NCBI GenBank assembly: GCA_003707115.1
Contig: PPNB01000005.1
Location: forward strand, 372,001 to 436,000
Direction of reading: 5' to 3'
Origin: Tortispora ganteri
Taxonomy: Eukaryota
DNA length: 64,000 nt
Shown here: in pieces, positions 1-39,004 of the stretch
Position numbering within the stretch: position 1 is the stretch's first letter
How the letters are laid out: each line of letters starts with the position of its first letter
Made by a program: the position numbers and the translations under genes
The notes under the pieces: model-generated
The model's input: the letters and a program-made list of their open reading frames with translations, nothing else
Database searches by the model: none
What the model was told of the DNA's origin: nothing

Positions 1-1641
1 ACAGGAGGAGGAGACGGTGGTCGTCACCCCAGCAACATTTTGGAATATGGCTATCCTACCTGTGGACTGAGTTTCACTGGCGATTCTGCTATTCTTTTTG
101 GTGCTGATGGCGGTACCCTGAGTGGATTTATTTGTGTAGCCGTTCCAGTCGAGTCGGACTGGTGGAAGTTCGGTCAAGCTAAACCGGGCGATATTCTGCG
201 ATTTACTCCTACTTCTCGTGTCGCTGCTATACAACTTAAGCAGAAAAGATTAACGTGGAACAAATATATCGCTACTCTACCTTCTGCCGAGAATGCTAAA
301 GCATTCAATGATGAAGCTTATTCCAATGTGGAAGTTGATGGCACGAGTTCTATCATGTATTCCAGACCTGCTGGTAACGATTTGCCTTTCGTTGAATATC
401 GGCGTTGCGGTGAATCAATGATATTAGTTGACTTCGGCATTCTTGATTTTGATTTAATGAATAATGGCAGACAGTATGCAATGGATCTTGCTCTTCAGAA
501 GTTGCCGGAATCCTCAAAGGCGAAGAAGGCTATATATCGTGTTGAATGTCTTAGTGGGTCGCTTAATGTCAGCTTTGACCCTCTCAAGATAGATGTGCGC
601 GAGATGTTAGAACAACTGATGCATATTGAAAGCGCATTACCTCCATCTCGTGAACTTAAGATCCCGTCTCGCATATTTCACTTCCCTATGGTGTTTGAAC
701 ACTCTGCACTGCGAGCGTGCATCGAAAGGTATGTCAAAACTCAAAGGCCGCATGCACCCTATCTTCCTAACAACATCGAGTACCTGATGAAGACGAGCGC
801 TATTGAGACCTTTGAGGAGTTTAAGACATTCGTAATTGATCAACCTCAAGTTGTGACTGCTGTGTCGTTTTTGTGTGCTCTGCCGTTGTACGTACAGGTC
901 GACCCCAGGAAGAGATTCATGTCTGCGAAGTATAATCCTGCGCGTACATTTACTCCAGCAGGTTGCTTGGCTACAGGTAGCTTGACTAATAGTATTTACT
1001 CTGTTGATTCTCCTGGTGGATACCAAATGTGGGGTATGACGCTTCCTGGTTCGTGCTGGAACACGTTCAGCAGACTGCAAGGATTTCCCCCTGGCCAACC
1101 ATGGCTTATGAATTTGTACGACCAGATTGTGTTTTACGAGGTTACAGAGGAAGAGCTGAACTCTCTTAACGAACAACTGATTACTGGACGATATACTATA
1201 AAGTACGAAGATTCAGTCTTTGATTTCTCTGCATATGCAGACTTGGTTGAGTCTACTAAGGAAGAAGTAGCCGACCTACGTGCGCGCCAGTACAAAGCAT
1301 GCGAGAGCGTCATTGCGTTGGATGCCGAAGATTATGCTCTATGGGAGAAAGAGAAGGAGGAAAGCAAGCTGAGCAAAAGCAGCGAAGAGGGATCGCTAGT
1401 CAACAATCCCAATGCGGTCAAGGTGACTTCACCGATGAATGCGAGTGTATGGAAGATACAGGTTAAACCAGGTGACAAGGTGACCAAGGAGACTGTCTTA
1501 ATGATCCTGGAAGCGATGAAGATGGAAATTCCTGTCCGATGCGAAGACCTAAAGGGGGAGATGACTATTGCTGCGATTATGTCTGAAGAAGCAGATGTTG
1601 TTTCATCTGGTGATTTGCTTTTGATTGGTCTGACAGAATAA
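1..1641 (+). CDS. Urea-carboxylase-like / LamA-like biotin-dependent protein (carboxyltransferase PxpC/PxpB-like domains + C-terminal biotin carrier); 5' end outside window
   Basis: The frame is open from base 1 (TGGGDGGRHPSNILEYGYP). It has the motifs KYNPARTFTP and DSPGGYQMWG and a C-terminal biotinylation motif ILEAMKMEIPV. Confidence 0.85.
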   Translation, partial: TGGGDGGRHPSNILEYGYPTCGLSFTGDSAILFGADGGTLSGFICVAVPVESDWWKFGQAKPGDILRFTPTSRVAAIQLKQKRLTWNKYIATLPSAENAKAFNDEAYSNVEVDGTSSIMYSRPAGNDLPFVEYRRCGESMILVDFGILDFDLMNNGRQYAMDLALQKLPESSKAKKAIYRVECLSGSLNVSFDPLKIDVREMLEQLMHIESALPPSRELKIPSRIFHFPMVFEHSALRACIERYVKTQRPHAPYLPNNIEYLMKTSAIETFEEFKTFVIDQPQVVTAVSFLCALPLYVQVDPRKRFMSAKYNPARTFTPAGCLATGSLTNSIYSVDSPGGYQMWGMTLPGSCWNTFSRLQGFPPGQPWLMNLYDQIVFYEVTEEELNSLNEQLITGRYTIKYEDSVFDFSAYADLVESTKEEVADLRARQYKACESVIALDAEDYALWEKEKEESKLSKSSEEGSLVNNPNAVKVTSPMNASVWKIQVKPGDKVTKETVLMILEAMKMEIPVRCEDLKGEMTIAAIMSEEADVVSSGDLLLIGLTE

Positions 1642-1737
1642 ACAGACGCTTAGATAATAGTAACTACATTAGTTAAATATTATTACAATAGGACTTGTAA
1701 GTGAATGAAGTGAATATACAAAGTTTATGTAAGCTAT

Positions 1738-2487
1738 TCAAGCGTTTACTTCTGCAAGCAGCTCATTGATCTGTTTCGCTTTGATGACGGCATCAGGAAG
1801 ATCGCTGTGAAGACAGACTGTGACTTCAGGCTCGTTAGCAAAATCGAATTGGATTTTCTTGCCACTCTTAGCGTCGACAGTGTCTTCGTAGAGGATCTGA
1901 CGGAGTGCGTCCTTCACTTGGTCGGTGGGCCTGCCTCCGTAGATGGTGAGGGACATGATAGAGCCGTCATCGGCAAAGTTAACGTCAGGGTAGGCCTCTG
2001 GGATGAACTTGATGCCGTACTTTTTGCAGTATTTTTCATGGAATGAGCCCTTGATGCCGTAGACGGGGACTTTGAAGGTAGCGCAAGCAGCCATGACGGC
2101 ATCACAATACTCTTCATCACGGGCGGATTCAATATAAAGTGCACCGTGAGGCTTGATATGGTTCAAAGGGACATTTTCGGACTGCAGGATTGCACACAAA
2201 GCACCGACCTGGTAGAGCACATTTGCTTTTATCTCCTCCTGGGTCATAATCATACGTCTGCGTCCAAATCCTTCGCGATCAGGGAATGAAGGATGTGCAC
2301 CGACAGGTACGCCATGTTTTTTAGCGAGTCTTACAGTTTTGACCATTGTCATAGGGTCAGATCCGTGGAAACCACAGGCGATATTAGCGGACTTGATGAG
2401 AGGCATGAGTTCTTCGTCCGGTCCTAGTTTCCATATACCGTAGCCTTCTCCCATATCGCAGTTCAGATGCACATATCGTTTGACCAT
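1738..2487 (-). CDS. lamB: LamB/YcsF (PxpA, 5-oxoprolinase subunit A) family protein
   Basis: Family signature motifs are present: LNCDMGEGYG, ANIACGFHGSDP, GAHPSFPDREGFGRR, HIKPHGALY, TVCLHSD. Confidence 0.92.
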   Translation of the reverse strand: MVKRYVHLNCDMGEGYGIWKLGPDEELMPLIKSANIACGFHGSDPMTMVKTVRLAKKHGVPVGAHPSFPDREGFGRRRMIMTQEEIKANVLYQVGALCAILQSENVPLNHIKPHGALYIESARDEEYCDAVMAACATFKVPVYGIKGSFHEKYCKKYGIKFIPEAYPDVNFADDGSIMSLTIYGGRPTDQVKDALRQILYEDTVDAKSGKKIQFDFANEPEVTVCLHSDLPDAVIKAKQINELLAEVNA

Positions 2488-2522
2488 TTTTGCAATCGAA
2501 TCAATGTAGTAACGTGGGACCT

Positions 2523-2817
2523 CCCCACCTCTTTATATAATCAGCAAAGGTTAAGCGATTGACAAGTGCAGTAAACATACTTTTCAGATGCACCATTATC
2601 GAAAGCAATTAGGTTTACCGGTTAAAGTCAATTGGCTATCAAAATAGCTGCGAGGTTCCTTAATAGGGATAAAGAAACCGGAGGGATAAGTTCAAAGTGT
2701 GTATGCGCTTAGCTGTGATTGGTCAATGCATAGCTCAAACTCTGCGTAATCGCCACACCGGTGGGTCGGGACATTGCTCCTGCGATAAGATCGTGTTAAG
2801 GAACCACCACCCGATAA
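2523..2817. promoter_or_regulatory. Upstream region of lamB with TATA box and five GATAA sites
   Basis: TATATAAAG lies on the minus strand at about 2531-2539. GATAA sites are at 2596-2600 (reverse), 2668, 2685, 2784 and 2813. A GTGGGG (CreA/Mig1-like) site is on the minus strand at 2523-2528. Confidence 0.5.
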
Positions 2818-2905
2818 ACGCGCTAAGTTTTGGAAGCAGATACTTTTCATATGACATAATTAGTGGCACGCTGCTGTCACGTGTATGTGTAAAAAACGAC
2901 AGTGC

Positions 2906-4162
2906 TCAAGTCCTCGCGGGCGATCGCTGTGGCCGTTTCGGACTAACCGTGACGCGTACACGTTTCTGGCTCTTAACCCAGTCGGAGATCTCTATGTACG
3001 AAGTTCCTTGGCGTACAAGCACATTACTGCCTAATCCACGTACCCAGATAGTCTCATTGCTCATATTGGATCTTGTTTTGATTTGCAATTTCTGTGTGAG
3101 TGAGTAACCGGTACCCTGTGGACCATTAGCCGATGTTACCACAAACTCACCCGGCCGTAGCTCATCCAGAATAGCCTGAACAGTTTTGTCAAGGCTCGTA
3201 TTGTTGTTTTGACGCTCTTTATGTCTGTCTGGTGATGATCTATTTTTCTTTGTAGGTGACGCGTTCTTGAGCGTTTTCTTAGCCTGTGACACATCTTCAA
3301 GCGCCGCCAGAGCCTTCTCGACATCCGGATCACTGATCGTATTCAATATCATTGACCCACGCGAAGACGGTGTATGCAACGGTGACGAATTTTTGTTTGC
3401 ACGTACGGGCGTATATACGGGCGACTGATCTTTGCTCTGCTTAGACGCAGAATTCGGCCGACTGCGTCCGTAGAGGTCCATCACACTATGTGGAGGTGTG
3501 GCTTGTATCATTGGTACGTTGTCCAACTGTGCAATTGACGGAATAATGCTGCTGGTCGAGCTTACACTTGTAGTAGTAGACTGTGGTTTTGACCGCATAT
3601 ACTCTTCTGGCTCATCTATTCCGTCATCTTCTAACTCTATACAGCTTTGTATATCTTTCAGATCATGCACCGTGACCACGCTGCTCAGAGACGCATGCAA
3701 ATCGTTTTCCTTTGAGCTGTCCGTGAACTGCGGCGGCTTAGCGCACACCTCAGACGATATTAGATTAGCCAGGTTTTCTGTCGTCTCAATGGCAAGCGTA
3801 GCCAGCGCCGTATCGGTACCAGTGCCAGTGTCAGTACTCGGAATCTCTGCGCTTTGACCTATTGCCAGTAAATGCGAAGCCACCCGTCTAGAATCCGCAT
3901 CAGCTTTCGCCTGTTCTAGCTCAAATTTTAACTGTACTGTCTGTAACAGTCGTTGAGCAAGCTCAGATGAAGTTGCTGGCTGCTCGACGCTCAGAAGCCG
4001 TTCCTGTAACAATTTGACCTCTTGCCAAATATCTGCAAACTCGTCCTCTGCCAGCCAGTCATAGTACCGGTAATTGCCGTCTCTGTACGCCTTCTCTACA
4101 TACAGCTTTTTCCGCATCAGCGTGCGTATCATCTCGTCTAAAAACTGGATATCGTTAGCCAT
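2906..4162 (-). CDS. Coiled-coil, Ser/Pro-rich protein with a probable divergent C-terminal GAS2/GAR microtubule-binding domain
   Basis: 418-aa ORF. The C-terminal IWVRGLGSNVLVRQGTSYIEISDWV resembles the GAR motif (VMVRVGGGWxxLxxF/W). Confidence 0.5.
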   Translation of the reverse strand: MANDIQFLDEMIRTLMRKKLYVEKAYRDGNYRYYDWLAEDEFADIWQEVKLLQERLLSVEQPATSSELAQRLLQTVQLKFELEQAKADADSRRVASHLLAIGQSAEIPSTDTGTGTDTALATLAIETTENLANLISSEVCAKPPQFTDSSKENDLHASLSSVVTVHDLKDIQSCIELEDDGIDEPEEYMRSKPQSTTTSVSSTSSIIPSIAQLDNVPMIQATPPHSVMDLYGRSRPNSASKQSKDQSPVYTPVRANKNSSPLHTPSSRGSMILNTISDPDVEKALAALEDVSQAKKTLKNASPTKKNRSSPDRHKERQNNNTSLDKTVQAILDELRPGEFVVTSANGPQGTGYSLTQKLQIKTRSNMSNETIWVRGLGSNVLVRQGTSYIEISDWVKSQKRVRVTVSPKRPQRSPART

Positions 4163-4257
4163 TTATTTCCGGCCCTTTGGTGCTCTTTTATGCTTCGTCT
4201 AAAGTGACTTGAAGAGTGTCGGATGATCAAGTCCACGTAAATAAGGCCGCCTTCGAA

Positions 4258-4299
4258 GTGTAAAGCCGCATTGCCTGTTACAGCAATGCGGCTTCACAC
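4258..4299 (-). repeat. Inverted repeat / 17-bp hairpin downstream of MRPL35
   Basis: AAGCCGCATTGC (4263-4274) pairs perfectly with GCAATGCGGCTT (4283-4294). On the minus strand GTGTG/TACAC extends the stem with one G-U pair. Confidence 0.8.
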
Positions 4300-4400
4300 A
4301 TAACTGAAGCAACGCTATTGGAGAGATTCAATGTTCGTAAACAGTCTTCTACATTTTTATTACCATAGAATTTTCATAAGTGCTCTGCAGATTATATGCA

Positions 4401-5405
4401 TTAGTTCGATTGATTGCGCTTTGTAGCAGGTCGTTCAGATATCCGAATCGGCGTGAACACCCGGCCTTCCGGTAGACCGTATTGTTCGCGAACCGAGTCG
4501 GTAGTGCGATCGTATCTGTTCCTCCAAACATGTGCACCTAGAGGACGAAGTTGAAGTTGCTTACAGATATCGCGCAGGTGACGTGCACAGGTAATATTCT
4601 GGAACTGCTTCTTAAGGTCCTTAGTATCGCCTATCGGCTTACGTTGCCAAAGAACCCACAAACAAAGCCGTTCGACACCCGCATTGAGCTCAGGCGTCGG
4701 AGGAATATAATCTAAAATTTCTTTGCCTTCATTTTCCACTGGTTTACCCACTACAGGGTAATTAACGCGCGTTTTGGTTAGCGATATAGGCACGTCAGCT
4801 AGCACCCAATGCACTTTCGTCTTGAACGAGTCGTTCTTAGTGTCGGCAATATCGGGATTAACCAGTATAATACTATAGAGACCTTCATCATGTTCGTCAA
4901 ATGGCTGAATATTTACAACAGGTGGCCTGGCTGTGACTGACGACGGCAGAATAGTTCCAGGTTCTAGAATACGTGTCCGTAGGCCCGGGAATCGTATAGA
5001 GACGTCAACTTTAGGTCTAAATGTAGGCAATGTGTCGGGAATCACATGTAACTGTTCTAATCTTTGCATAAGCAACATTTGCTGCTTTTCATGCCAATGT
5101 TGTTTTTTAATCTCACGAGCTGTACACTCTGACATTAGAGCCGGCTTATGTGGGTTCAAGATAAGTTCCTGAAACTCGGGCTTGTTTATCTCATCCCGGA
5201 TTTTTGACTGCATAATGCGATATTGCATTTGCTTCTTACGCGCCGCAAATTGCTTATCCTCAGGATCGAGTGCGTCTATCTTTTGTTGTAGCCGTTGTAT
5301 TGTAGCAGCATTTTTTGCTTCGATCTTCTTCAGCACAACTTGAGCTGCCTCATAGGCATCAGAAATTCCCGGAACGCTCCTATATATCCTTCGGAATGTA
5401 CTCAT
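4401..5405 (-). CDS. MRPL35: Mitochondrial ribosomal protein mL38 (PEBP-like)
   Basis: LMQRLEQLHVIPDTLP, PEBP-type YSIILVNPD..HW..DYIPPTPE, and a C-terminal VREQYGLPEGRVF. Confidence 0.88.
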   Translation of the reverse strand: MSTFRRIYRSVPGISDAYEAAQVVLKKIEAKNAATIQRLQQKIDALDPEDKQFAARKKQMQYRIMQSKIRDEINKPEFQELILNPHKPALMSECTAREIKKQHWHEKQQMLLMQRLEQLHVIPDTLPTFRPKVDVSIRFPGLRTRILEPGTILPSSVTARPPVVNIQPFDEHDEGLYSIILVNPDIADTKNDSFKTKVHWVLADVPISLTKTRVNYPVVGKPVENEGKEILDYIPPTPELNAGVERLCLWVLWQRKPIGDTKDLKKQFQNITCARHLRDICKQLQLRPLGAHVWRNRYDRTTDSVREQYGLPEGRVFTPIRISERPATKRNQSN

Positions 5406-5684
5406 AACCAGCTATTTGTTGGAAATAAATACTTATAGAAACGAAATAGAGGAAGAATCGGTCTGTACTACTTCGTCAAAAATTAATCGTGAACTCAAGC
5501 CGTTGCCATGCCAATATCCAACAACCGGTTTAGAAACGAACGAAAATATCGTACCCGAAGACAAGAATCTAAGCAGCACAATTCACTGTTTGAAATTGTT
5601 GTTTTTCGACCGTTGAATAATCATATAACCCGTGGTGCGTGCATATTGAGCTGAAAATCTTGTAAATATTGGGTTTTTGTGGTC

Positions 5685-6383
5685 ATGTCTTTCTTTGTTC
5701 ATGCCAAAAAGCCGCCGACGCACGTTTTAGCGACGGTGCGAAAGTTTCCTAATCTGCAGCCATTAAGGCTACAACCAGTGCCTTCAGAGCAGCTGGCAGC
5801 GCCGTTAAGGAAAGATATTTTATGGCGTGCTGTTGTTTTTGAAGGGGATGCGGCTCGTGTCGGTTCTGGTGATTCTCCGACGCGGTCGACAATCGGATAC
5901 TCTACTCGCAAGCTACGCCCTCAGAAGGGCAGTGGTCGAGCGCGTCTAGGCGATGCAGGATCACCTATGCTGCATGGTGGCGGACGTTCGCACAGTGCTC
6001 AAGCTCCAAACGATTTCTCCACAAAACTTCCGCGAAAGATATACGCGCAAGCAGTGCGTGTGTCTATGAGCCATCTATACCAGAACGGCACGCTCAGTGT
6101 AGTTGAACGAGGTGCCTTCAAACATAGCTCGGCGCTGTCATCACCATCAGCTGTTAACTCTTTTCTTTCGCATCATGATTTGCTGGGGAAATACGTGATA
6201 CTCATACAGTCACGGCCTGTCACTGACCAAGAGAAACAGATTGTACAGGAAGGTTCTAACGGCCGTGCTCACAGACTTGACTGCACTGAAGTAGACATTC
6301 GCATGCTTCTGAAAGCACGTAAAGTCATTGTCGAAAGTCCAGTAATAAATCTTTTGGCTGGGAACCCTCATGAGGAGAATTGA
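5685..6383 (+). CDS. YML6: Mitochondrial ribosomal protein uL4m
   Basis: LRKDILWRAV and RKLRPQKGSGRARLGD..SPMLHGGG (uL4 loop). The first ATG is at 5685. Confidence 0.9.
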   Translation: MSFFVHAKKPPTHVLATVRKFPNLQPLRLQPVPSEQLAAPLRKDILWRAVVFEGDAARVGSGDSPTRSTIGYSTRKLRPQKGSGRARLGDAGSPMLHGGGRSHSAQAPNDFSTKLPRKIYAQAVRVSMSHLYQNGTLSVVERGAFKHSSALSSPSAVNSFLSHHDLLGKYVILIQSRPVTDQEKQIVQEGSNGRAHRLDCTEVDIRMLLKARKVIVESPVINLLAGNPHEEN

Positions 6384-6650
6384 CAGTCGCGAGTTCTAGA
6401 TGGAGAAAAAAAAAAGATATCATCTGAAGAGCGTGAGGCCCAAGAAAACCAGCCTTGACGACATATCTGATGATCTCAACGTAACCCAGACGATTAATGC
6501 CTTATAACTTAGAAATCACAATTGTTATACAAATGTTTCTAGTCATAGCGTTCAAGCTAGTTTGCTGCCCAAATAACGGCAAAGTATAAGACCACTCTCC
6601 CAATATACTCTCTTACGTCCATCACACCTGCACACTTAGAAACCAGCATT

Positions 6651-7274
6651 ATGATGCGAATAGGGAGCAGTAAGACGTATTTCAACGTTACTGCATATGT
6701 TAGAGCAGTCAATGCGGCATATTTCAGTAGCATGCGGACGGTTTATAAGCGGCAGCCGGTACCTGAAGCGCTCCAGCGGCTGCGGAGTAATAAAGTGATG
6801 CTAATCGATATGGAAGGCAAGAAACTCGGAGCTGTAGCGGTTGAGGATACATATAAATATTACGATCCTGAGACGCACGAATTGACAGTGGTAAAAGAAG
6901 GTGACGTAGGTGAAAGCCCTGTAGTGCGTGTGATGGAGAAGAATAGTGTGGTACGCAAGAAAAAGACTATCAAGCCGAGCAAACCAAAAAAAACCAAACA
7001 GTTCAATATTTCTTGGACTATGGCACCTGCAGACCATCAAACACGAATCAAGAACGCAATACAGCAGCTGCAAAAGGGACATCCGGTAGAATTCCGGTTT
7101 GGGTTCACGGGATCTGGAAAACCGACGCGGGAGCCGCGTGATCGAAGCGAGATAGATAGATTGATGCAAATGTACAGCGATAGTTGTTCAGAGCACGGTA
7201 AGAGCGGTCATCGGCAACTATCTGCGAAAGAAGAAGGCAGGATTATCTCGTTTTTTCCGTTAAAAGCAACATAA
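6651..7274 (+). CDS. Mitochondrial translation initiation factor IF-3 (Aim23-like)
   Basis: Basic presequence, an IF3-N-like segment (VMLIDMEGKKLG), a Lys-rich linker, and an IF3-C-like KQFNISWTMAPADHQTRIKNAIQQLQKGHPVEFRF. Confidence 0.75.
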   Translation: MMRIGSSKTYFNVTAYVRAVNAAYFSSMRTVYKRQPVPEALQRLRSNKVMLIDMEGKKLGAVAVEDTYKYYDPETHELTVVKEGDVGESPVVRVMEKNSVVRKKKTIKPSKPKKTKQFNISWTMAPADHQTRIKNAIQQLQKGHPVEFRFGFTGSGKPTREPRDRSEIDRLMQMYSDSCSEHGKSGHRQLSAKEEGRIISFFPLKAT

Positions 7275-7276
7275 GG

Positions 7277-8830
7277 TTATGCTTTGCCGAACCAGTTTGT
7301 TTTTTTTGTGATGAAATAGACGGGGATACCTGTGGCGATGAACGCTAATATGATTATTGTGCTCAAAGGTTTTGAGAATATTCCGCGTGACATTAAAAAC
7401 AGTGCTACACAGCAGAATATTATAGGTGTTGAGAGCCACACCTTGTAAGGCCGGTATAGAGTTCTGTCTCTGAACCTCAGGATAATGACACCGAGCACTG
7501 TTATGAAATAGAACAAGTACCCTGAAACGCCGTATATGATTACGAGCTGTTCGAAGTTTCCTACTAGCACGTAAACCACAATAAGGACGGCAAACAGGAT
7601 CAAGCTGCGGAGCGGTACTTTGCCTTCCTCTCCTGCAGCGAAGTAATGAGGTATGAAATTATTGCGGGCGGCACTTTGTATGAGGCGCGCTGATGAGAAC
7701 ATTGTAGCGTTAAGTGCGCCAAAACATGAGAGACCAACTGCGCAAGCAAAAATAAGACGGCCTGTATAGCCTAAGATACGTTCGCCAAAGGCGAGCGCTA
7801 CCGTGTTGGTAGCGTTTATCTCTGACAGTGGTAGTACTAGAAAGTAGGAGATATTTACTATGAGATAAGCGACAATAACAGTAGGCATAGCAAACTGTAC
7901 GATTTTCGGTAAAGTTTTTGTTGGCTCTTTGAGATCACCAGCGATGAAATTGACGTTATCCCATCCGTCAAAAGCCCATAGAGCAGAATAGAGAGCTGTA
8001 GCGAACTGTGATATATCTTTAGAGGTATTTGACCATATACCATTATCGAAAGCGCCTGGTTTATGGCCATCTACTGCTCCTATGGCTGCATAGACGATAC
8101 CGAAAATGATGACGGCGATAAGAATGGCGAATTTGCAGATAACAAGAATGTTACTGAAACTTGCTGCTTTCCTTGTAGAGAAGGAGTTAAGAAGAACAGC
8201 TAGAAAAAGACCAGTCAAAGCGACAATTTTATCAAGCCAGAACATAAGAGTTGGACTGAGATCCAGCTTTCCGAAGGCTGCTCTATTGACGTATTCACCA
8301 AAGATCACGGCAATGATAGCTGCAGAGCCTGGTTTGAGTAAGACGATAGCGCACCATGAATAAAGGAATGATAAAAATGGTCCATAGACATGTTGAAGGT
8401 ACACTTGTGCACCACCATTATGTGGTAAAGCTGCACCAAGCTCAGCGTATGATAGTGCACCAGTCCATGCGAGTAGTCCAGCAATGACCCATGTAGTAAG
8501 GGCGGCACCTATAGATCCGGTATTGGCGCTAACATTGCCAGGAGATGCAAATATGCCAGAACCTATTTGAAGACCAATAACAAGAGCTAATCCACTAAAT
8601 AAACCAAGTCTTTTTATAGAGACTGGAGTATCTGGGTTGTATGTTGACAAAAGACCACCTGTGAAGCCTAAAGATTCTGCGAATGATAGTGCAAGTGAAG
8701 CTACTGAAAGACTACGATTGCGTGTACCATTAGAAATAGAATGTGAATGTTCAGATCGTTGAGAATCAGATAAAAATTGTGCATCAGTTTCAGAATCAGC
8801 CAATGAGGCTAATTCAAATGAATCAGGCAT
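7277..8830 (-). CDS. APC superfamily, LAT-type amino acid permease
   Basis: IGSGIFASP, YAELG, LWAFDGWDN, RPYKV and about 12 hydrophobic segments. Confidence 0.9.
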   Translation of the reverse strand: MPDSFELASLADSETDAQFLSDSQRSEHSHSISNGTRNRSLSVASLALSFAESLGFTGGLLSTYNPDTPVSIKRLGLFSGLALVIGLQIGSGIFASPGNVSANTGSIGAALTTWVIAGLLAWTGALSYAELGAALPHNGGAQVYLQHVYGPFLSFLYSWCAIVLLKPGSAAIIAVIFGEYVNRAAFGKLDLSPTLMFWLDKIVALTGLFLAVLLNSFSTRKAASFSNILVICKFAILIAVIIFGIVYAAIGAVDGHKPGAFDNGIWSNTSKDISQFATALYSALWAFDGWDNVNFIAGDLKEPTKTLPKIVQFAMPTVIVAYLIVNISYFLVLPLSEINATNTVALAFGERILGYTGRLIFACAVGLSCFGALNATMFSSARLIQSAARNNFIPHYFAAGEEGKVPLRSLILFAVLIVVYVLVGNFEQLVIIYGVSGYLFYFITVLGVIILRFRDRTLYRPYKVWLSTPIIFCCVALFLMSRGIFSKPLSTIIILAFIATGIPVYFITKKTNWFGKA

Positions 8831-9570: not shown

Positions 9571-12500
9571 TCACGAATCAAGAATATCAACGTATTTTTG
9601 TCTCACGTTTCGTCGTCGTAGAGGCTGCCGATTTTGTGTACTCGCTAGAAGTTCGTCCAGTTCGCTCATAGGTCCTGTCTGTGCAGTCATCTTTGCAAGC
9701 GCACTAGCCCGGTTTTTCGCACGCGGCATGGGCGCAACAGCAGGTAACGGAGCGCTAGCTGCAGAAGTCTTAGCCGTAGCTGGTTGTGATACTGCTTCCT
9801 CAACCGGCACAAGTTCAACCCTCTCTGAAACCTCGGATTGTTCCACTTTTTGTTGTACTCGCTGTTCCGCAGCAGGTGTACTCGTATACACCTTAGACGC
9901 AGACTCCTGCTCAGCTTGTGCATCAGCTTGACTAATATTATGCACAGGAGTCACCTCAAAAGAAGAAGATCGCTCCTGTTTTATTGGCGTCTCATTTGTA
10001 GATAGCTGATACGAATTCTGCGTCACTACAGCATCATTTGTACCAGAATAATCAGTAGTCAATGGACCGTATATGCCACTGGTAGTTCCAGGACTGTAGC
10101 TACCAGAACCGGCATTAAATGAAGCGATTTTATTTGCATCTGCTGAATCAGCACCACTTATTGGGTTGTACTTATTCGCAGAATTATAAGAATCAGAGTG
10201 AACTGACGCAACACTAGGCGCGTAGGTGCGAACAGGCTGGTAAGCATCGATACCACCACTTGAGTCTCGGCTAGGTTCATAAGGGTTGCTCTGTTCGATA
10301 GTCTTCTGAGTTTCAGGGGCATATGAGGGCCTTGTAGCATTATCAGTAGTAACGTTGTTGTTCGCAGTCACAGTCTCTGGTGCATAAGAATTGTAACCGT
10401 ACCCAGAGTTCATACTAGGTGCGGGCATAGTTCCACTATTTCTTCCAGTTCCCGACGTATAATCAGTACTTTCGTTAGACTTAGCATACTGACTGAAATG
10501 AGGCTGCTCACTTTTCGGTGAGGATGCAGGCCGCGTCTCAGTAGGTGCATTATCATGTTGTTCAGGATAAGCAGGACCTTCCTCCTTTAGGACTTCGCCA
10601 GGCTCTGGCAAAGGAATAGGTGCCGGAATAGGTGCAACAAACTTAGCAGGAGGCTGTTGGGCTTTCTGAGTAGGTGCTTTCGCTTTCACTGGAGCCGGTA
10701 TACTAGCAATATGTGTATTGCCAGGCCTCTTAGGAGGAGGTGGTGGAGGAGCATCGTGTTCATCTTCGGGAGAGTCAGGATTGATCCATTTTTTCTTCTC
10801 CTTATCATAAAACATTTTATTCTCACTACCAAGAAGCGCTTTGTAAACACGTTTTTCTTCTTCTTTTTTCTCACCTTTCTTCCATGGGAACCATCCTTTC
10901 TTATCATCTTTGTTCTTATCAGAATGTTCACCTTGGTCTCTTTCATCGTCTGAATCATCGCTCTTATGTGGCTTATTCGTGATAAACGTATTCAGGTCTG
11001 AATCTTCGTCTTCGCCTTTTACGGATGACTCCTTTGAAGACAAGTCGGCTGATACGTAGTTAGGAATATCAACAGTAGTGTCTACAGGTAGACTGGCCGA
11101 CGATTCTGAGTCAGAAGACGACACTTCAGGGGTATACCCACTATGTACGTCCTCTCCGTCTTCTTCTGGTCGCAAAAGAGTGTCTGACTTTGCTGCATAT
11201 GTTTCTCTAGTAAATTCAGCATCGTTATCAGCATTATCCTGCGGCCGTGGTTCTTCGTAAGACGGAGGCTGATAAGATGGAATCTGATATCCTTCATAGC
11301 TCGGTTGTGGCTCGACAGGGTTGTTCTTTACAGGAACAGACGGAACGGACGGGACGGCCTGAGACAATGGTGGAGCATACTTCACGGCATTAGCTGGAGG
11401 TGGAACAATATGATTAACGGGTCCAGACACTTGACCAAACTCAACGTCCTGTAGTGAATGTTGAGTCTCCTGTGTAGCAGAGCTTGCTGGAGAAAGAACA
11501 TGAGGAGGTGCTGAAAGGGCTGGTTTAGCTTCGGCATATGAATGTGTGGTTTCAGTTGGAGTAATTAGCTCCTCATCAGCGTTGTTCTTCACCATATCCC
11601 CCATAATGTTGCGCTGCAGAGTTGGCGCACTGCGAGCCGCAGAAGTAAACTCAGCATCGCCATGAGAACCTCGCGGAGACTCTTGTAGTTGAACTTGGGT
11701 GACAGGCAACAGAGTTTCGGGCTCTTCTGGGACAGGCGGCGTTTGTGTGTTTGTACTGTAAGCTGCGGAGAAGTTTATACGGTCATTGGCTGGAAGACTA
11801 TATGTGCCACGCAGCGCAGATGTGCTTGGAGTATCCTTTGCAAGTTTCTGGTGTACAGGTGGTGCAGGAAATTCAGCTGTATCTGTGTAAGGAGATGTCC
11901 TATAAGGAGGCACGCTAGAACTATTAACAGATCTCCTTCCTGAGAGATCAGCAATAGATGACATACGAGACAAATTGGTGTTGCTAGCAACCTTGACGAA
12001 TCGCTCGTCAGCGACACTTTTTCGGTCACTTTCGACCTCTGAATCACCAGCAACAAATTTCGTAAAACTTTTGTCAAAATGATTAAGAAGGTTTCCAAAA
12101 CTTGGTCGGAACCATCCAGAGTTCGCGTCTGCGGCTTTCTCTGCCAGCAGTTCAGCTGCCGTGCGCACAACTTCAAGGAATCTTGCAGTATAGTAAGGAT
12201 TGAATCCACGAGGAGCAGAACGAAAGATTGCAGAAATGTTACTTAAATAACGTGATGCTTCAGGCACAAATCCATGGTCAAGAAGAATCATAGCATGCTG
12301 ATACTTGAACCAAACTAAATGAGACCATTCCTTAAAAGCAGGACTCTCGTTTGATGCAAACTTGATATATTCTGCAATTTCTGTCAAGCACATGCCTTCG
12401 ATGTCGTTGGCAAAATTATTGACTGCATTTTTGGCATTAGTTGCGCCAACAAAACTGAATTCCGGCTCAGTGGTATCCAATGCTCCTCCAATAGTGACCT

Positions 12501-15500
12501 TATCGAACACAAAAAGGTAACAAGCTGCTGCCGCATAGGGACGTTCTAATTCCATCAGTTTGTCGCCTAGAAGTTTAATAGAAGAAGCTGATGTGAAGAA
12601 ACAAGTGCACAGAATAGCAAATAGTAGCTGCGGCCAGATATCCAGAGACTCGCGAGTTTCATCTTGCAAAAGATTATCGGTTGTGCCAGCCATTATCTTG
12701 TATAGCAGACCCAAAATACGACTATTTTGATCTGAGGAATGCGCTAAGACTTCCTTTCGAGCAAATTCGTTCAATGCCCGAGACCATTCCTCCTTTCCAA
12801 GTGTGCTACTAAATAAGAGAGCATGAGTCCAATTACCGTGTGCTAGAGCCAGTTCAACTACCGACTTACTGCCTCCAGTATTCAGTGTCTCCAATATGGT
12901 AGTCGCAGAAAGGTCTGCATGTGGTTTCTGCTGTTGAATAAATCCTAGGCGGTCCGTAGCAAGTAGACCATCACGTTGGACAGTTGATCCAATTAGAGCA
13001 TCACGTAGTTTAGAAATCAAATCGGTAGAAGACAACGCCTGAGGAACAATTTTGCCATCAATGTCGATTAGTACCTGCATAACTTTGTAAAGGAGAATCT
13101 TGTCGTTAGCTTGCCGTTTGAAATCACCGTGATAAGGTCGGCTTTCAATTTCAAGAAATGCGACACGAGCTTGTATCCACTGCGAAACATTCTTAGCCGT
13201 ATTCTTGTTTGCAGACTTGCTAGCAGGATTAACTAACGGGCCTGGGAAATTTCCAATTGCTTCAGGAAGCTGTACGTACTTGCTCGCATTAGCTATAGAA
13301 ATGGTAGAACTCTCGGAGGCCAAAGCATCAGATGTCGGAATGATAGATACAATACAGCCATTAGGGCTCCATAAACAAATTCCTAGTGATCTTTGTCTCC
13401 TTTGCAAATCTCCAGCAGCAGGTACTTGTTCTTGTTGGTAAACATTTGTTACCTGATAATGCGGCTGCCCATAAGTAGTTTGTTGTTGCACGGCAGTATT
13501 AATATCGTAAGAATTAGGATACGAAGACGGCGGATTTTCAGGTATAAAATTCGCATTAGCAGACGGCAATTTGGGTTGAAACTGTTCTTGAGACACCGTT
13601 TCTGGAGATATATATTGACTGTGAGGGGCTGGTGGCGCACGTCCAGGAACATTAGAAGGAACATATTGAGAAGCGACGGGTGGAGGAAGGCCATTCACAT
13701 GCGCTTTAGGGTTGAAAATAACTGATGCATTAGATGCTTGTGAGTATATACTGTCGTCTGGCTCAGCTCGAGAAGTATCAGAATTCGGTTGTGCATAACT
13801 TTCAGGTTCTAATGTCGCGTTCTTGGCTTCATGAGCAGAAGACTGTTCATTCTGAGCTGTATATTTCACGGGGTAGTGCTGTTCATACTGTTGCTGTTGA
13901 GGAATATGCCTAGGCGGGGGGGGTACAGGTATTGTATGAGCTTGTTCTGGCTCATGGTCGGCTCCGGGAACGTTTTGCGAAAAAAACTGGTGCTGCTCAT
14001 TTTCCTGATAGGGCTTCCCAGTTTTTCCATCCGATGAAGAGTTGATAGTTTCCGGAGATACTCCGGCATGTGGAATCGAAGAGAAGAAATCGGAGCGGTC
14101 TTGTGATTCTTGTTGCGCTTGTTCAGAATAATACGGAGGCACATTAGAAGCAGGTTCAGAACCTTGAGGGTATGATAGATTGTTGTTTTCTGGATATGGA
14201 TTTTGAGAATACAACTCAGGCATAGGCTGGCCAGGTTGAGAACTCTGCGGTTGATACTGATCATGAGTCGTAGGTTGCTCGTAATGAGAAATATTATCTT
14301 GTCGTGCTCCGTAAAAATCTTGCGGAGGTGCGTATGCAGAGTTTTGTTGAAAGCCTTGTCTGCTGATAGTCTGAGGTCTCTGGGAGTAGTCAAGGTAACT
14401 ATCAGTACGATAACTTTGGTTTGAAGGACCACGCTGTAAAGACTCAGGTCTTTGATTTTGAAGAGGTTGAGAGTTTTGAGAGTGCAGTTGCGGCATTACT
14501 CCATAGTTCTGAGGGATTGCAGGACTATAGCTCTGCGAAGAAATATCGTAATTCGTCATAGCAGGATGATTGTAGCTTTCCGATGGAGCAGTTTGGCCCT
14601 GTACCTGGTTATTCACCGTAGAAGGATTATATTGCTGCGGATACGCATTTGTAAGCTGCGGATAGCTTTGTTGAGAGTCAGTATGTTGATACTGCTTCTG
14701 ATATCCGTAGTTTTCATACGGTTGAAGCGGCTGCGACCCGTGGTATACATTGCTGGAATGGCTCTGCTGAGATGGGGCTCTGCTAAAGTTGTTTGGCCTG
14801 CTGAGGCCATAGTCCTGTTGCGACGAATATACATGATTAGACTGCGGATTCGAAGGTTGCTGGTGGCCGTAGTAGCTACTGTGAGACTGGGCCGGAGAGT
14901 ATTGGTTCTGTAGAGGAGGCGCATTCTGCATATGATAGAGATGACCACCTGCAGGGAACTGAGACGCAGGGGTTACAGCCGGTGAGAACGAAGTCTGTCT
15001 AGAAGGACCATGCTGTTGACTAGCATAAGATGCGACTGAGCTGACCGAGGGACGGTGTGGGTTAGACGGGGGAGGGTAATGAGGCTGTTGAGAGGGGACG
15101 CGCTGCATTGCGTTGTAGTCGGTCTGCGTCGGAAACGGTGACATGCTGGTTGCCTTGTGGAGAGTCCGTGGTGGCGGTGGAGGTAGCGTTTGACTAGTGT
15201 CGAAGGAACGGTGCGTCCCAGAGAGCGACGGACTTGCTCTAGGGTTCATGTCCGGAGAGCTATAGGCGCTCTGTGGGCCACCAATAGGTGGTGGTAAAGG
15301 GAGAGAGCCTGAAGGCTGGTAGTGGTGGTGGCGCGGTGCAGGAGCAATTTTCGGCAATGGCAACTCTTCGAAGAATGCTGGGGCCTGTTGCGACGGATTC
15401 CGCGTTTGTACAGGCGGCAAAGACTTGCCCGGGGATGTGCTTATAGCGACTGGCTGTTGCACTGGCGAAAGGACAGGTCCAGGTTTAGGGATAAGGGAAG

Positions 15501-35835: not shown

Positions 35836-37347
35836 ATGGTTCATCTTGGCCCAAAACGTCCGCCTAGTAGAAAAGTAAGTAAAATTTTCCTATAGTGTCT
35901 TTGATATACTAACAATATACAGGGATCTATGGCTGATGTGCCACGAAACTTGCTTGAACAGATCAAAGCTTTTGAGGAACTTTTCACTGTCGATACGGCT
36001 AAACTGAATGAAATTGTTGATCATTTTGTATCTGAGCTGAAAAAGGGTCTTACGAAAGAAGGTGGATCCATTCCAATGATCCCTACATTTGTTATGGACT
36101 GGCCTACAGGCAAAGAGAAAGGTGCGTATTTAGCGCTCGATATGGGAGGCACTAATATGCGTGTTTGCGAAATTATACTTGACGGTGATAGAAGTTTTGA
36201 TACTATTCAATCTAAATATCACATGCCCCCTGAACTCAAGGTTGGAGACTCAGACGCCATGTGGGATTATGTAGCTGAATGTTTAGAAGCTTTTATTGCC
36301 TCTTACCATGGGTCAATTGAAGAAGTTGAAAAACTCCATCTAGGTTTTACATTCTCATACCCATGCACTCAGTATGCCATTAATCATGGTATTCTGCAAC
36401 GCTGGACAAAAGGCTTCGATATCGCTGGCGTAGAGGGCAAAGATGTAGTCCCGATGTTGGCTAAAGCATTCGAAAGACGCAATTTACCTATCACAGTAAC
36501 TGCACTTATCAATGATACTACGGGCACGCTAGTTGCTTCAAACTACACAGATCCCTCATTTAAGATGGGCGTCATCTTTGGTACAGGTTGCAATGCCGCT
36601 TACTACGACACACTCGGCAATATTCCTAAACTTGAAGGTAAATTAAGTCTGCCACCAGATACACCAATGGCTATCAATACCGAATGGGGTGCTTTTGACA
36701 ACGAGAATGTTGTTCTACCGCGCACTAAATACGATGTACAGGTCGACAAGGAATCTCCTCGTCCAGGACAACAATGTTTTGAGAAACTAATTGCTGGCTT
36801 ATATTTAGCTGAGATATTCCGTCTTTGTGTGCTCGACATGCATGATTCTGGCTTAATACTTGAAAATCTCGATGTAACGGCCTTCAGAAAGCCTTACTGC
36901 ATTGATGCATCGTTTTTGGCTATGATAGAAATGGATCCATTTGAGAACTTATCTGAAACAGAAGAGCTATTTCTCACTAAATTTGGTCTCAAAACAACTG
37001 AACCTGAGCGTAAATTATTCCGCAGATTAGCGGAACTTATTGGAACGAGGTCTGCTCGTCTATCTGCATGTGGTGTTGCTGCTATCGCTAAGAAGACCGG
37101 TATGACTGAGTTCAATGCTGGCGCTGACGGCTCTGTGTATAACAAGTATCCTTTTTTCCGTGAACGTGGTGCTGAAGCTCTTTCTGAAATATTCGGCTGG
37201 CCTAGCAAAGAACAGAAAGATCATCCTATCAAAATTCTTCCTGCAGAAGACGGTTCTGGTGTTGGTGCTGCATTGATTGCTGCATTGACGCTCAATCGTA
37301 TTGGAAGAGGTGAGAAAGTCGGTTTCGATGTTATTCCTACTGACTAA
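35836..37347 (+). CDS. HXK2: Hexokinase; exon 1 35836-35874, intron 35875-35922, exon 2 35923-37347
   Basis: Splicing gives MVHLGPKRPPSRKGSMADVP, matching the yeast hexokinase N-terminus. Other motifs: LALDMGGTN, LGFTFSYP, INDTTGT, EDGSGVGAA. Confidence 0.93.
35875..35922 (+). other. 48-nt spliceosomal intron in hexokinase
   Basis: GTAAGT donor, TACTAAC at 35907-35913, CAG acceptor; phase 0. Confidence 0.93.
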
Positions 37348-37519: not shown

Positions 37520-39004
37520 TCATTGCGCATAGTGGTTAAGTCGCCATAATCTCATTTTGCCCACATCATTAGCAGTAACTAAAATATGCGACTGTGCACT
37601 TAATGCCACAGCAGTAACGCGGCCTAGCGGCGTGCCGCTCGTCGGCCAGTTGCGGTACGCCGTGCCTGTAGCAATATGGCCAACTCGTAGTGAATCTTTC
37701 TTGCCTTTGCTTGCATAGACGACCAGCTGTCCGTCAAACGATATTTCAAGTGATGAAATAGGAGTCACAATCTGGTTAAACGATGAGCATGGTTTGGGCG
37801 GGTTGTGCAAAAATGACTGTGCATTGTACACGTTCACTACTCCGCTCTGAGTGCCTATAGCAGTGATTTTGCCTTTACGAGCTATACACGTGCATCCAAA
37901 ATCAGTCCACTTCCTTACCACAGCTTTTGTAGTAATATCCCATTCATAAATATCACCTGCTTGACTGGCCACTGTAAGTGATCCATCGTCTCCCCAAGCA
38001 ATATCGGCAATAATTCCTTCGATCTTAACGGCTGTAGTCCATACACCGGCAGAATTAACAATATTAACCCAGCCCTGTGATCCTATAAGCGCAATTAAAC
38101 CAGACTTCGAAATAGCAAACCGTTCCATAGACCGCTGAGACTCTGCATGACCGTAGAAACGCGATATTTTCTGGACGTTGCCGGTTTCGAGGTTCCAAAT
38201 GTACATGTACCGTCTGCGACCTGCAGCATAGATGAACTTCCCAGATGGATCAAAAGCCGCTGTTTTTATAGGTGTTGGCAACTTGAGGCTCTTAAAATAA
38301 GCGCTAGACTTTGTAGTGATGTGGTACAGTCGGATAGTCTGGTCAAATCCAGCCGAGAGGAACAGCGACAAATTCGGATGGAAATCTAGCGTTTGAACAG
38401 CTGCATCATTCATAAACACAGGATCCTGCAGTCTTTCGATATCGATATTTTGTGGGTTTAAGAATTTGTTAGTAACTACTAGATCGACTGAAGAATTGAG
38501 TAGATCGGCTAGCGCAGTAGTAGTCGCTAAACCTGATTCTTCGTCAGTTGGTTCAATCATTTCATTTTCAATATCAAATGATGCCCATTTAGGTACCGGA
38601 TGTAGTTTTGTGAACTGGTTACGTAGTCGTGAAACGTATTGTTTACCGGTCAATGACTTCTCTGTGCCAAGTTTCTTAAGTCGATCTGCCGCTAGTGAAA
38701 CGTTTACGGTATCGTCATCACTATCAATCCATGCATCACTATCTTCTTCTGAAACATCTGATTCAGACTCAGAAAGAGAATCAATACTATTATCATCTAT
38801 CCCGTCGTCAAGGTAGAACCCAACTGATTCGGTATCATCTTCATATTGATTTTCTTCAGATGTATCAGAATCGTTCACATAATCTTCACCAAACACTGCC
38901 TTTTCAAGTTGATGTTCACGTAGTTTTTTATCCTCATCAATCATTTTATTAATAACACGTTCATGTCTACTTTGACGTAGAGCTGCACTGTGTTTTTTCA
39001 CCAT
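37520..39004 (-). CDS. UTP18: SSU processome WD40 protein Utp18
   Basis: LEKAVFG, AWIDSDD, LRNQFTKLHPVPKWA, AGRRRYMYIWNL, NWPTSGTPLGRV. ATG at 39004. Confidence 0.93.
   Translation of the reverse strand: MVKKHSAALRQSRHERVINKMIDEDKKLREHQLEKAVFGEDYVNDSDTSEENQYEDDTESVGFYLDDGIDDNSIDSLSESESDVSEEDSDAWIDSDDDTVNVSLAADRLKKLGTEKSLTGKQYVSRLRNQFTKLHPVPKWASFDIENEMIEPTDEESGLATTTALADLLNSSVDLVVTNKFLNPQNIDIERLQDPVFMNDAAVQTLDFHPNLSLFLSAGFDQTIRLYHITTKSSAYFKSLKLPTPIKTAAFDPSGKFIYAAGRRRYMYIWNLETGNVQKISRFYGHAESQRSMERFAISKSGLIALIGSQGWVNIVNSAGVWTTAVKIEGIIADIAWGDDGSLTVASQAGDIYEWDITTKAVVRKWTDFGCTCIARKGKITAIGTQSGVVNVYNAQSFLHNPPKPCSSFNQIVTPISSLEISFDGQLVVYASKGKKDSLRVGHIATGTAYRNWPTSGTPLGRVTAVALSAQSHILVTANDVGKMRLWRLNHYAQ

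Follow-up and report, generated by a model that had tools for sequence, protein, structure and literature searches.

The genes lamA and lamB have been known genetically in Aspergillus nidulans for decades; LamA is reportedly urea-carboxylase-like, and the two genes are said to be adjacent. They are AmdR-controlled genes of lactam catabolism (PMC8016842). For the 5-oxoprolinase PxpABC, the assumed roles are ATP-dependent activation by PxpBC and ring opening by PxpA (PMC13274462), and genetics in Pseudomonas putida found one PxpABC paralogue to be required for butyrolactam and another for 5-oxoproline (10.1101/2021.12.09.472016). For caprolactamase, a carboxy-lactim mechanism has been proposed (PMC8453981). 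Here we describe a pair of convergent genes, encoding a LamA-like biotin-dependent carboxylase and a LamB/PxpA protein, at one end of a 64,000-nucleotide stretch of the yeast Tortispora ganteri (contig PPNB01000005.1, positions 372,001 to 436,000 of the forward strand; hereafter the window). The pair adds a new yeast member to the lamA/lamB kind, which is known from genetics but uncharacterised in its biochemistry, and it most likely encodes an ATP- and biotin-dependent hydrolase of lactams (cyclic amides) of the A. nidulans type.

As in A. nidulans, a urea-carboxylase-like protein without an amidase stands beside a LamB/YcsF protein; unlike the A. nidulans genes, the window pair is convergent, with its members 96 bp apart, belongs to a budding yeast and a distinct lineage, and is known from sequence alone. 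Strope et al. 2011 state that urea carboxylase is absent from Saccharomycetes, and their paper mentions neither lamA, lamB nor lactam (PMC3073912). Full-text literature, in which subscription journals are mostly not covered, yielded no account of how LamA and LamB work biochemically, of such a pair in any yeast or of a PxpA system that depends on biotin.

A LamA-like gene and a LamB gene in T. ganteri

An earlier note on this DNA, made from the letters and their open reading frames (ORFs), had described a urea-carboxylase-like gene with an EAMKM biotin site ending close to a convergent LamB/PxpA gene, and the ORFs together with Pfam and NCBIfam matches bear this out (Table 1). The frame of the large gene is 5′-open at the window edge, running from base 1 to its stop codon, and its 546 residues contain the end of carboxyltransferase (CT) subdomains A/B, CT subdomains C/D, a linker and the biotin carboxyl carrier protein (BCCP) domain. 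Pfam places the last 63 positions of CT_A_B at residues 8–69 (profile 198–260 of 261, 47.6 bits), CT_C_D at residues 132–347 (51 bits) and Biotin_lipoyl, which contains EAMKM, at residues 475–541 (41 bits). The best NCBIfam model is urea_carbox (TIGR02712), which scores 397.8 bits over profile positions 679–1198 of 1201 against a curated cut-off of 1303.85, the scored fragment amounting to 546 of about 1260 residues.

The LamB protein is matched by LamB_YcsF (PF03746) from end to end (profile positions 1–238 of 239, 270.4 bits), lies above the cut-off of the PxpA subfamily model NF003814 (243.7 versus 226 bits) and keeps all 35 invariant family columns of a 55-sequence alignment. Its nearest solved structures are the UPF0271/PxpA proteins 2dfa, 1v6t, 2xu2 and 1xw8, and its closest relative is P0121 of Tortispora caseinolytica, with 96% identity. 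With E-values of 1e-10 to 1e-80, the matches in the window are not due to chance.

For the large protein, the closest relative is P0001 of T. caseinolytica (1260 amino acids, 94% identical), with which the window fragment is collinear and gap-free over residues 715–1260, differing at 33 of 546 positions. The domain order of P0001 is Biotin_carb_N, CPSase_L_D2 (ATP-grasp), Biotin_carb_C, CT_A_B, CT_C_D and Biotin_lipoyl, without an amidase; a layout of biotin carboxylase (BC), CT and BCCP is thus observed in P0001, and the window itself carries the CT end and BCCP alone. No amidase domain (PF01425) was found among the 120 relatives listed, P0001 included, and the neighbour in the window is LamB rather than an amidase, although an allophanate hydrolase might be encoded at another site in the genome. 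The earlier note had predicted a BC domain without amidase fusion; this holds in the nearest relative, the window gene's own BC half lying outside the window. All 36 invariant family columns that fall within the fragment are retained.

Upstream of LamB, GATAA sites number five in 418 bp, compared with a mean of 1.0, and five or more occur in 2.1% of the 418-bp windows across the 64 kb. This region might be a nitrogen-regulated promoter, a weak hint of nitrogen-catabolite control.

Table 1. Positions of the gene pair, its motifs and other features in the window
Feature	Position	Strand	Basis
LamA-like biotin-dependent carboxylase gene, 3′ part (546 codons plus stop)	1..1641	+	open frame from base 1, Pfam, NCBIfam
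HPSNILEY, replacing HPSNxHD of true urea carboxylases	25..48 (aa 9–16)	+	alignment to K. lactis enzyme
TAVSFLCALP at the position of the G-L-G-D-V loop, one residue shorter, without Asp	856..885 (aa 286–295)	+	alignment
KYNPART, bearing the Lys1605 equivalent	928..948 (aa 310–316)	+	alignment
EAMKM biotin attachment motif of BCCP (Lys codon 1519–1521)	1510..1524 (aa 504–508)	+	sequence, Pfam
AT-rich spacer, 96 bp, separating the two convergent stop codons	1642..1737	.	sequence
LamB/PxpA gene, intact, 249 aa	1738..2487	-	ATG-to-stop ORF, Pfam, NCBIfam
LamB upstream region, five GATAA sites (two of them GATAAG)	2488..2905	-	site count
ORF beside LamB, no Pfam match	2906..4162	-	
PEBP-domain protein	4401..5405	-	Pfam
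Ribosomal L4-family protein	5685..6383	+	Pfam
IF3-like protein	6651..7274	+	Pfam
Amino-acid permease, 517 aa (AA_permease_2, 213 bits)	7277..8830	-	Pfam
Tandem array in a spacer, about 7 copies of the 13-bp unit ATATCTTATCCAA	37352-37440	.	

Active-site motifs and descent of the large protein

We aligned the window protein residue by residue with the urea carboxylase/amidolyase of Kluyveromyces lactis (3va7/5i8i). TAV-SFLCALP aligns with GLGDVFLGSP of the K. lactis enzyme, and owing to a one-residue deletion the position of Asp1584 faces a Ser; HPSNILEY aligns with HPSNAHDY. The equivalents of Lys1605 (in KYNPART) and Tyr1628 (in SIYS) are both kept; in the K. lactis urea amidolyase, Lys1605 probably acts as the general base when the carboxyl group is transferred (PMC5770610). 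The large protein resembles Dur1,2, its closest solved structure, in the order BC–CT(A/B, C/D)–BCCP and in these two residues, but differs from it in having no amidase, no G-L-G-D-V Asp loop and no HPSNxHD, and in belonging to a sister clade.

Both motif states extend across the family. None of the 57 yeast-clade proteins has G-x-G-D-V, whereas every one of the 49 bacterial urea carboxylases carries it, as do 119 of the 120 urea amidolyases. The Asp is also absent from all 12 aligned relatives of the Pezizomycotina type. HPSN(I/V)LEY occurs in at least 54 of the 57 yeast-clade proteins; HPSNxHD is found in all 49 bacterial urea carboxylases and in at least 117 of the 120 amidolyases. Judged from these aligned sequences, the Asp loop and the HPSN motif separate the yeast clade cleanly from true urea carboxylases. 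The absence of the Asp loop together with Leu-Glu in place of His-Asp offers a simple rule for telling LamA-like proteins from true urea carboxylases, and would correct their annotation.

Among the relatives listed, 57 proteins belong to the yeast clade, and the named sources include 11 yeast species or strains. It is 35–41% identical to the Pezizomycotina proteins listed and forms a distinct lineage. Scored against the large protein, its members reach 446–571 bits, compared with 300–316 bits for bacterial urea carboxylases and 240 bits for the urea carboxylase in the Protein Data Bank. The two window proteins cluster with Pezizomycotina entries named 'urea carboxylase' and 'lactam utilization protein LamB'.

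Two trees place the large protein; here and below, LG+G4 was used, with support from the Shimodaira–Hasegawa-like approximate likelihood ratio test (SH-aLRT) only. In a CT–BCCP tree (48 rows, 788 columns, no bootstrap), the window fragment pairs with P0001 within the yeast clade at 100, the yeast clade joins one Pezizomycotina 'urea carboxylase' group at 95, and Dur1,2 comes together with the urea carboxylases and fused amidolyases of bacteria on a branch of 0.78 with a support of 100. In a tree of subdomains C/D (76 rows, rooted with classical PxpB), 21 fungal proteins without the Asp form one clade (99), sister to 11 true urea carboxylases (96). By this topology the large protein appears as a sister to the true urea carboxylases, not as a member of them.

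T. caseinolytica also encodes a separate true Dur1,2 (P0304, 1806 amino acids, with an amidase domain; the search was limited to longer proteins). A Dur1,2 and a yeast-clade paralogue are both present in Pichia kudriavzevii, Pachysolen tannophilus, Yamadazyma tenuis, Brettanomyces naardenensis, Candida boidinii, Wickerhamomyces ciferrii, Scheffersomyces coipomensis and Candida zeylanoides. The earlier note had seen that KYNPART is retained and had read the loop and the altered HPSN motif as setting this protein apart from Dur1,2-type enzymes. The K. lactis alignment agrees with it on each motif and the family-wide counts on the two altered ones, and the separation from Dur1,2 is upheld by the clades that true urea carboxylases and amidolyases form on their own (100 and 96) and by the separate Dur1,2 of T. 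caseinolytica.

These results bear on a reading in which the large protein works alone, carboxylating urea or a small acyclic amide (acetamide, formamide or a guanidine-like compound), and the adjacency of LamB is coincidental. We consider this improbable. The protein does keep the full BC–CT–BCCP layout together with the catalytic Lys and the conserved Tyr, yet it lacks both signature motifs of the 49 bacterial urea carboxylases and is fused to neither an amidase nor an allophanate hydrolase. Its best NCBIfam model is urea_carbox and databases label its relatives urea carboxylase, but it falls in a separate clade, the nearest named species has a true Dur1,2 as well, and the association with LamB is repeated in bacteria and other fungi, as shown below.

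How widespread are such proteins? A HMMER search of 1.84 billion representatives returned 177 clusters at E ≤ 1e-30. A regular-expression classing of the best 150 of the 177 representatives assigned about 70 to the form with the Asp loop and about 40 to the form without it; this classing is rough, with a few of the Asp-less rows being false anchors and 30 rows showing no motif, and gives the order of magnitude only. The fused form without the Asp is thus a large and diverse family rather than a yeast oddity.

Fused proteins without the Asp show at least four subtypes of the active-site loop, for example AVS-FLCA, SS/G-GLMGLP, VVG-FFCGNT and NAVG-WLxGLP (drawn from P0058–P0069, P0105, P0108 and representatives from the HMMER search). 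This diversity of loops suggests that fungal 'urea carboxylases' may have several substrate specificities. Fungal LamB also divides into several supported lineages in the PxpA tree described below.

One side observation from the 48-row tree concerns a bacterial-type, amidase-fused urea amidolyase (P0243) recorded in the mealybug Planococcus citri on a contig of 83.7 Mb. The protein shares 57% identity with a fragment of a bacterial urea carboxylase and groups with a urea carboxylase of Erwinia; its gene may have been transferred or may derive from a symbiont.

LamB and its probable partners in bacteria and fungi

We scanned prokaryotic genomes, one per species, with the LamB alignment, and searched the six-frame ORFs of the best 80 loci, from at least 599 matches, within 4 kb using hidden Markov models cut from the LamA-like alignment. 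Among the 40 loci whose PxpA was best against the LamB profile, 22 had both BC and CT, 2 had BC only, 3 had CT only and 13 had neither. For the 40 other PxpA loci the corresponding numbers were 4, 0, 30 and 6, the 30 with CT only being classical pxpABC. The common gene order in the LamB-like loci was pxpA, BC, C/D-like, A/B-like and sometimes BCCP.

A PxpA tree of 96 rows agrees with this division. All 16 fungal LamB proteins form one clade (98) inside a BC-associated PxpA clade (97, 56 rows), which contains 22 of the 26 bacterial PxpA proteins linked to BC and is set apart (98) from the classical PxpA clade. That LamB-type PxpA is coupled to a biotin carboxylase, as the earlier note had supposed for the yeast pair, is therefore backed independently by bacterial gene neighbourhoods, and LamB is probably a partner of the large protein and not a mere neighbour.

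The CT proteins of the BC-linked pxpA operons lack the Asp loop and keep the Lys (in 'PKY...'), as the yeast protein does; in classical PxpB the Asp is missing too, and Arg takes the place of Lys1605. The Asp-less state is common to every PxpA-linked CT protein examined, and since it is shared by operon CT proteins, classical PxpB and the yeast protein, loss of the Asp loop would be a state common to PxpA-partnered enzymes. In the proteins compared, retention of the Lys appears to accompany the presence of a biotin carboxylase. A regular expression for the HPSN-type motif returned nothing usable from the split bacterial PxpC-like proteins.

The window pair can now be set beside the bacterial systems. 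It is like PxpABC and the butyrolactam hydrolase PP_2920-2 of P. putida in having a PxpA/LamB hydrolytic partner and, as proposed below, in the ATP-dependent opening of a lactam, and by homology PxpC corresponds to CT subdomains A/B and PxpB to CT subdomains C/D. Unlike the window pair, classical PxpBC has neither biotin carboxylase nor BCCP, consists of separate subunits and carries Arg in place of the catalytic Lys; its PxpA belongs to a separate clade, and its presumed mode of activation is phosphorylation, not carboxylation. The bacterial operons of the form pxpA-BC-PxpB-like-PxpC-like(-BCCP) come nearer, with a LamB-type PxpA beside a BC, an Asp-less and Lys-bearing CT and a BCCP, and no other bacterial PxpA is as closely related to fungal LamB as theirs. 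They differ in that they encode separate polypeptides, with C/D before A/B, whereas the fungal protein is a single chain in the order of urea carboxylase.

In two Pelagibacteraceae loci (L093 and L101, about 10717-14560), the ORF after pxpA fuses BC with a C/D-like CT, and genes for A/B-like and BCCP proteins come next; to judge from these ORFs, the bacterial operon has become partly fused in these streamlined genomes.

An unrelated 5-oxoprolinase, of the OXP1 type, is generally known from yeasts. This counts against the view that the pair, built as the same two-protein biotin machine, acts as a 5-oxoprolinase in metabolite repair or pyroglutamate use and is an equivalent of PxpABC. The window LamB lies above the PxpA subfamily cut-off, but fungal LamB and the BC-linked bacterial PxpA form a clade separate from the PxpA of classical pxpABC. 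PxpABC itself is a 5-oxoprolinase (PMC13274462), and the presence of BC-linked pxpA operons in the streamlined Pelagibacteraceae would fit a housekeeping substrate; the P. putida paralogues, however, are substrate-specific for either 5-oxoproline or butyrolactam (10.1101/2021.12.09.472016), and the sole genetics on a fungal pair is that of lactam catabolism in A. nidulans (PMC8016842). Taking these points together, we regard a dedicated 5-oxoprolinase as unlikely.

In other fungi, matches to LamA-like and LamB proteins were recorded on contigs of equal size in five cases. Four are P0001 and P0121 of T. caseinolytica (both 2,610,682 bp) and the pairs of S. coipomensis (both 2,308,914 bp), Apodospora peruviana (both 3,629,735 bp) and Phialophora macrospora (both 3,889,323 bp). 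The fifth is the yeast-clade pair P0049/P0199, each found on two contigs of which the longest is 7,969 bp, implying a distance of no more than about 3 kb between the two genes. P0049/P0199 belong to a different yeast lineage in both the CT–BCCP and PxpA trees. A metagenome scan with the yeast-clade protein P0023 returned generic biotin carboxylases at 80 of 80 loci (a pattern of the BC domain), with no CT or LamB match beyond BCCP.

A proposed lactam hydrolase and its genomic setting

From the observed domain content, motif states, phylogeny and gene neighbourhoods we infer that LamA-like and LamB would act as a physical complex, and the chemistry and substrate that follow are predicted on the same grounds. 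LamA-like would be one large protein with BC, CT and BCCP, and LamB a metal-dependent lactamase of the PxpA family. The BC domain, supplied with ATP and bicarbonate, would load a carboxyl group onto the biotin of the EAMKM lysine, and the CT domain, with its catalytic Lys and conserved Tyr kept, would move the carboxyl group to the nitrogen of a lactam or cyclic amide, or to the lactim oxygen, rather than to urea. The second amino group of urea is expected to be held by the very Asp and His-Asp residues that this domain lacks. LamB would then open the activated ring, and the resulting carbamate would release CO2. Overall, the predicted reaction reads lactam + ATP + H2O → omega-amino acid + ADP + Pi, a parallel to the PxpABC 5-oxoprolinase with carboxylation in place of phosphorylation. 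The likeliest substrates, used as a nitrogen source, would be 2-pyrrolidinone (giving γ-aminobutyric acid, GABA) or 5-oxoproline.

That the pair forms a functional, biotin-dependent system for an amide or lactam other than urea is, in our judgement, fairly probable, and within such a system substrates of the 2-pyrrolidinone type and of the 5-oxoproline type have roughly even standing. More tentatively, and with somewhat less than even confidence, we suggest that LamA-like plus LamB and the bacterial pxpA-BC-PxpB/C-BCCP operons, from Pelagibacteraceae to actinomycetes, may be one widespread and biochemically undescribed class of biotin-dependent lactam hydrolase, in which carboxybiotin drives an N- or O-carboxylation that, in place of phosphorylation, readies the amide for PxpA to open its ring.

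In mycobacteria, the PxpC and PxpB homologues MSMEG_0435-0436 (Rv0263c-Rv0264c) bind the biotin of BCCP and have no urea carboxylase activity (PMC13012033). Like the window protein they are without the urea-carboxylase residues; unlike it, they borrow the BCCP of another carboxylase, and the passages covered mention no PxpA that works with them. By analogy, the CT part of the yeast protein could be non-catalytic and sequester biotin or BCCP to regulate another carboxylase, given that the Asp-less mycobacterial pair lowers propionyl-CoA carboxylase activity (PMC13012033). Here, however, CT is fused to its own BC and BCCP, with 36 invariant columns and the Lys kept in the fragment, and it is paired with a PxpA hydrolase that is intact at all 35 invariant columns. 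This is the layout of a complete enzyme, and we give a purely regulatory role very little credence.

Several points weigh against the biotin-dependent lactam hydrolase that we favour. The BC half of the large gene lies upstream of the window and is known only through the 94%-identical P0001, and A. nidulans LamA itself is absent from the trees. Asp1584 of the K. lactis enzyme is reportedly important in the binding of urea. The 80 prokaryotic loci are best matches and a non-random sample, and for 13 of the 40 bacterial PxpA genes nearest to fungal LamB there is no BC or CT gene within 4 kb. Linkage in other fungi was deduced from equal contig sizes, with only the 7,969-bp case implying close adjacency. 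In addition, the fused fungal protein has A/B before C/D, the order of urea carboxylase, where bacterial operons have C/D before A/B, and the fungal C/D is sister to urea carboxylases and not to the operon-encoded proteins; because domain order and tree position both match urea carboxylases, the partnership with PxpA may be either ancestral or gained separately. Finally, the authors of the mycobacterial study interpret their Asp-less PxpC/B pair as a regulator and not an enzyme (PMC13012033).

If a single class of biotin-dependent lactam hydrolase does exist, hundreds of Asp-less fungal 'urea carboxylase' annotations would be misnamed. Through the pairing with PxpA, which recurs in bacterial operons, the old question of LamA and LamB can be put as a concrete assay in tractable yeasts, and ATP-driven lactam hydrolases are relevant to the biotechnology of lactams and nylon monomers.

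The genes that follow LamB, at 2906-7274, appear unrelated to it (Table 1); the products of the L4-family and IF3-like genes are probably mitochondrial translation factors. We considered the permease beyond them as a candidate substrate transporter and rejected it, its look-alikes in the Atlas being of the LAT/y+L type and its gene lying 4.8 kb from LamB with three unrelated genes between. Elsewhere in the window, the ATATCTTATCCAA array lies directly 3′ of the stop codon of an ORF at 35929..37347 (+), in the spacer before a convergent ORF at 37520..39004 (-), and is the densest GATAAG region of the window.

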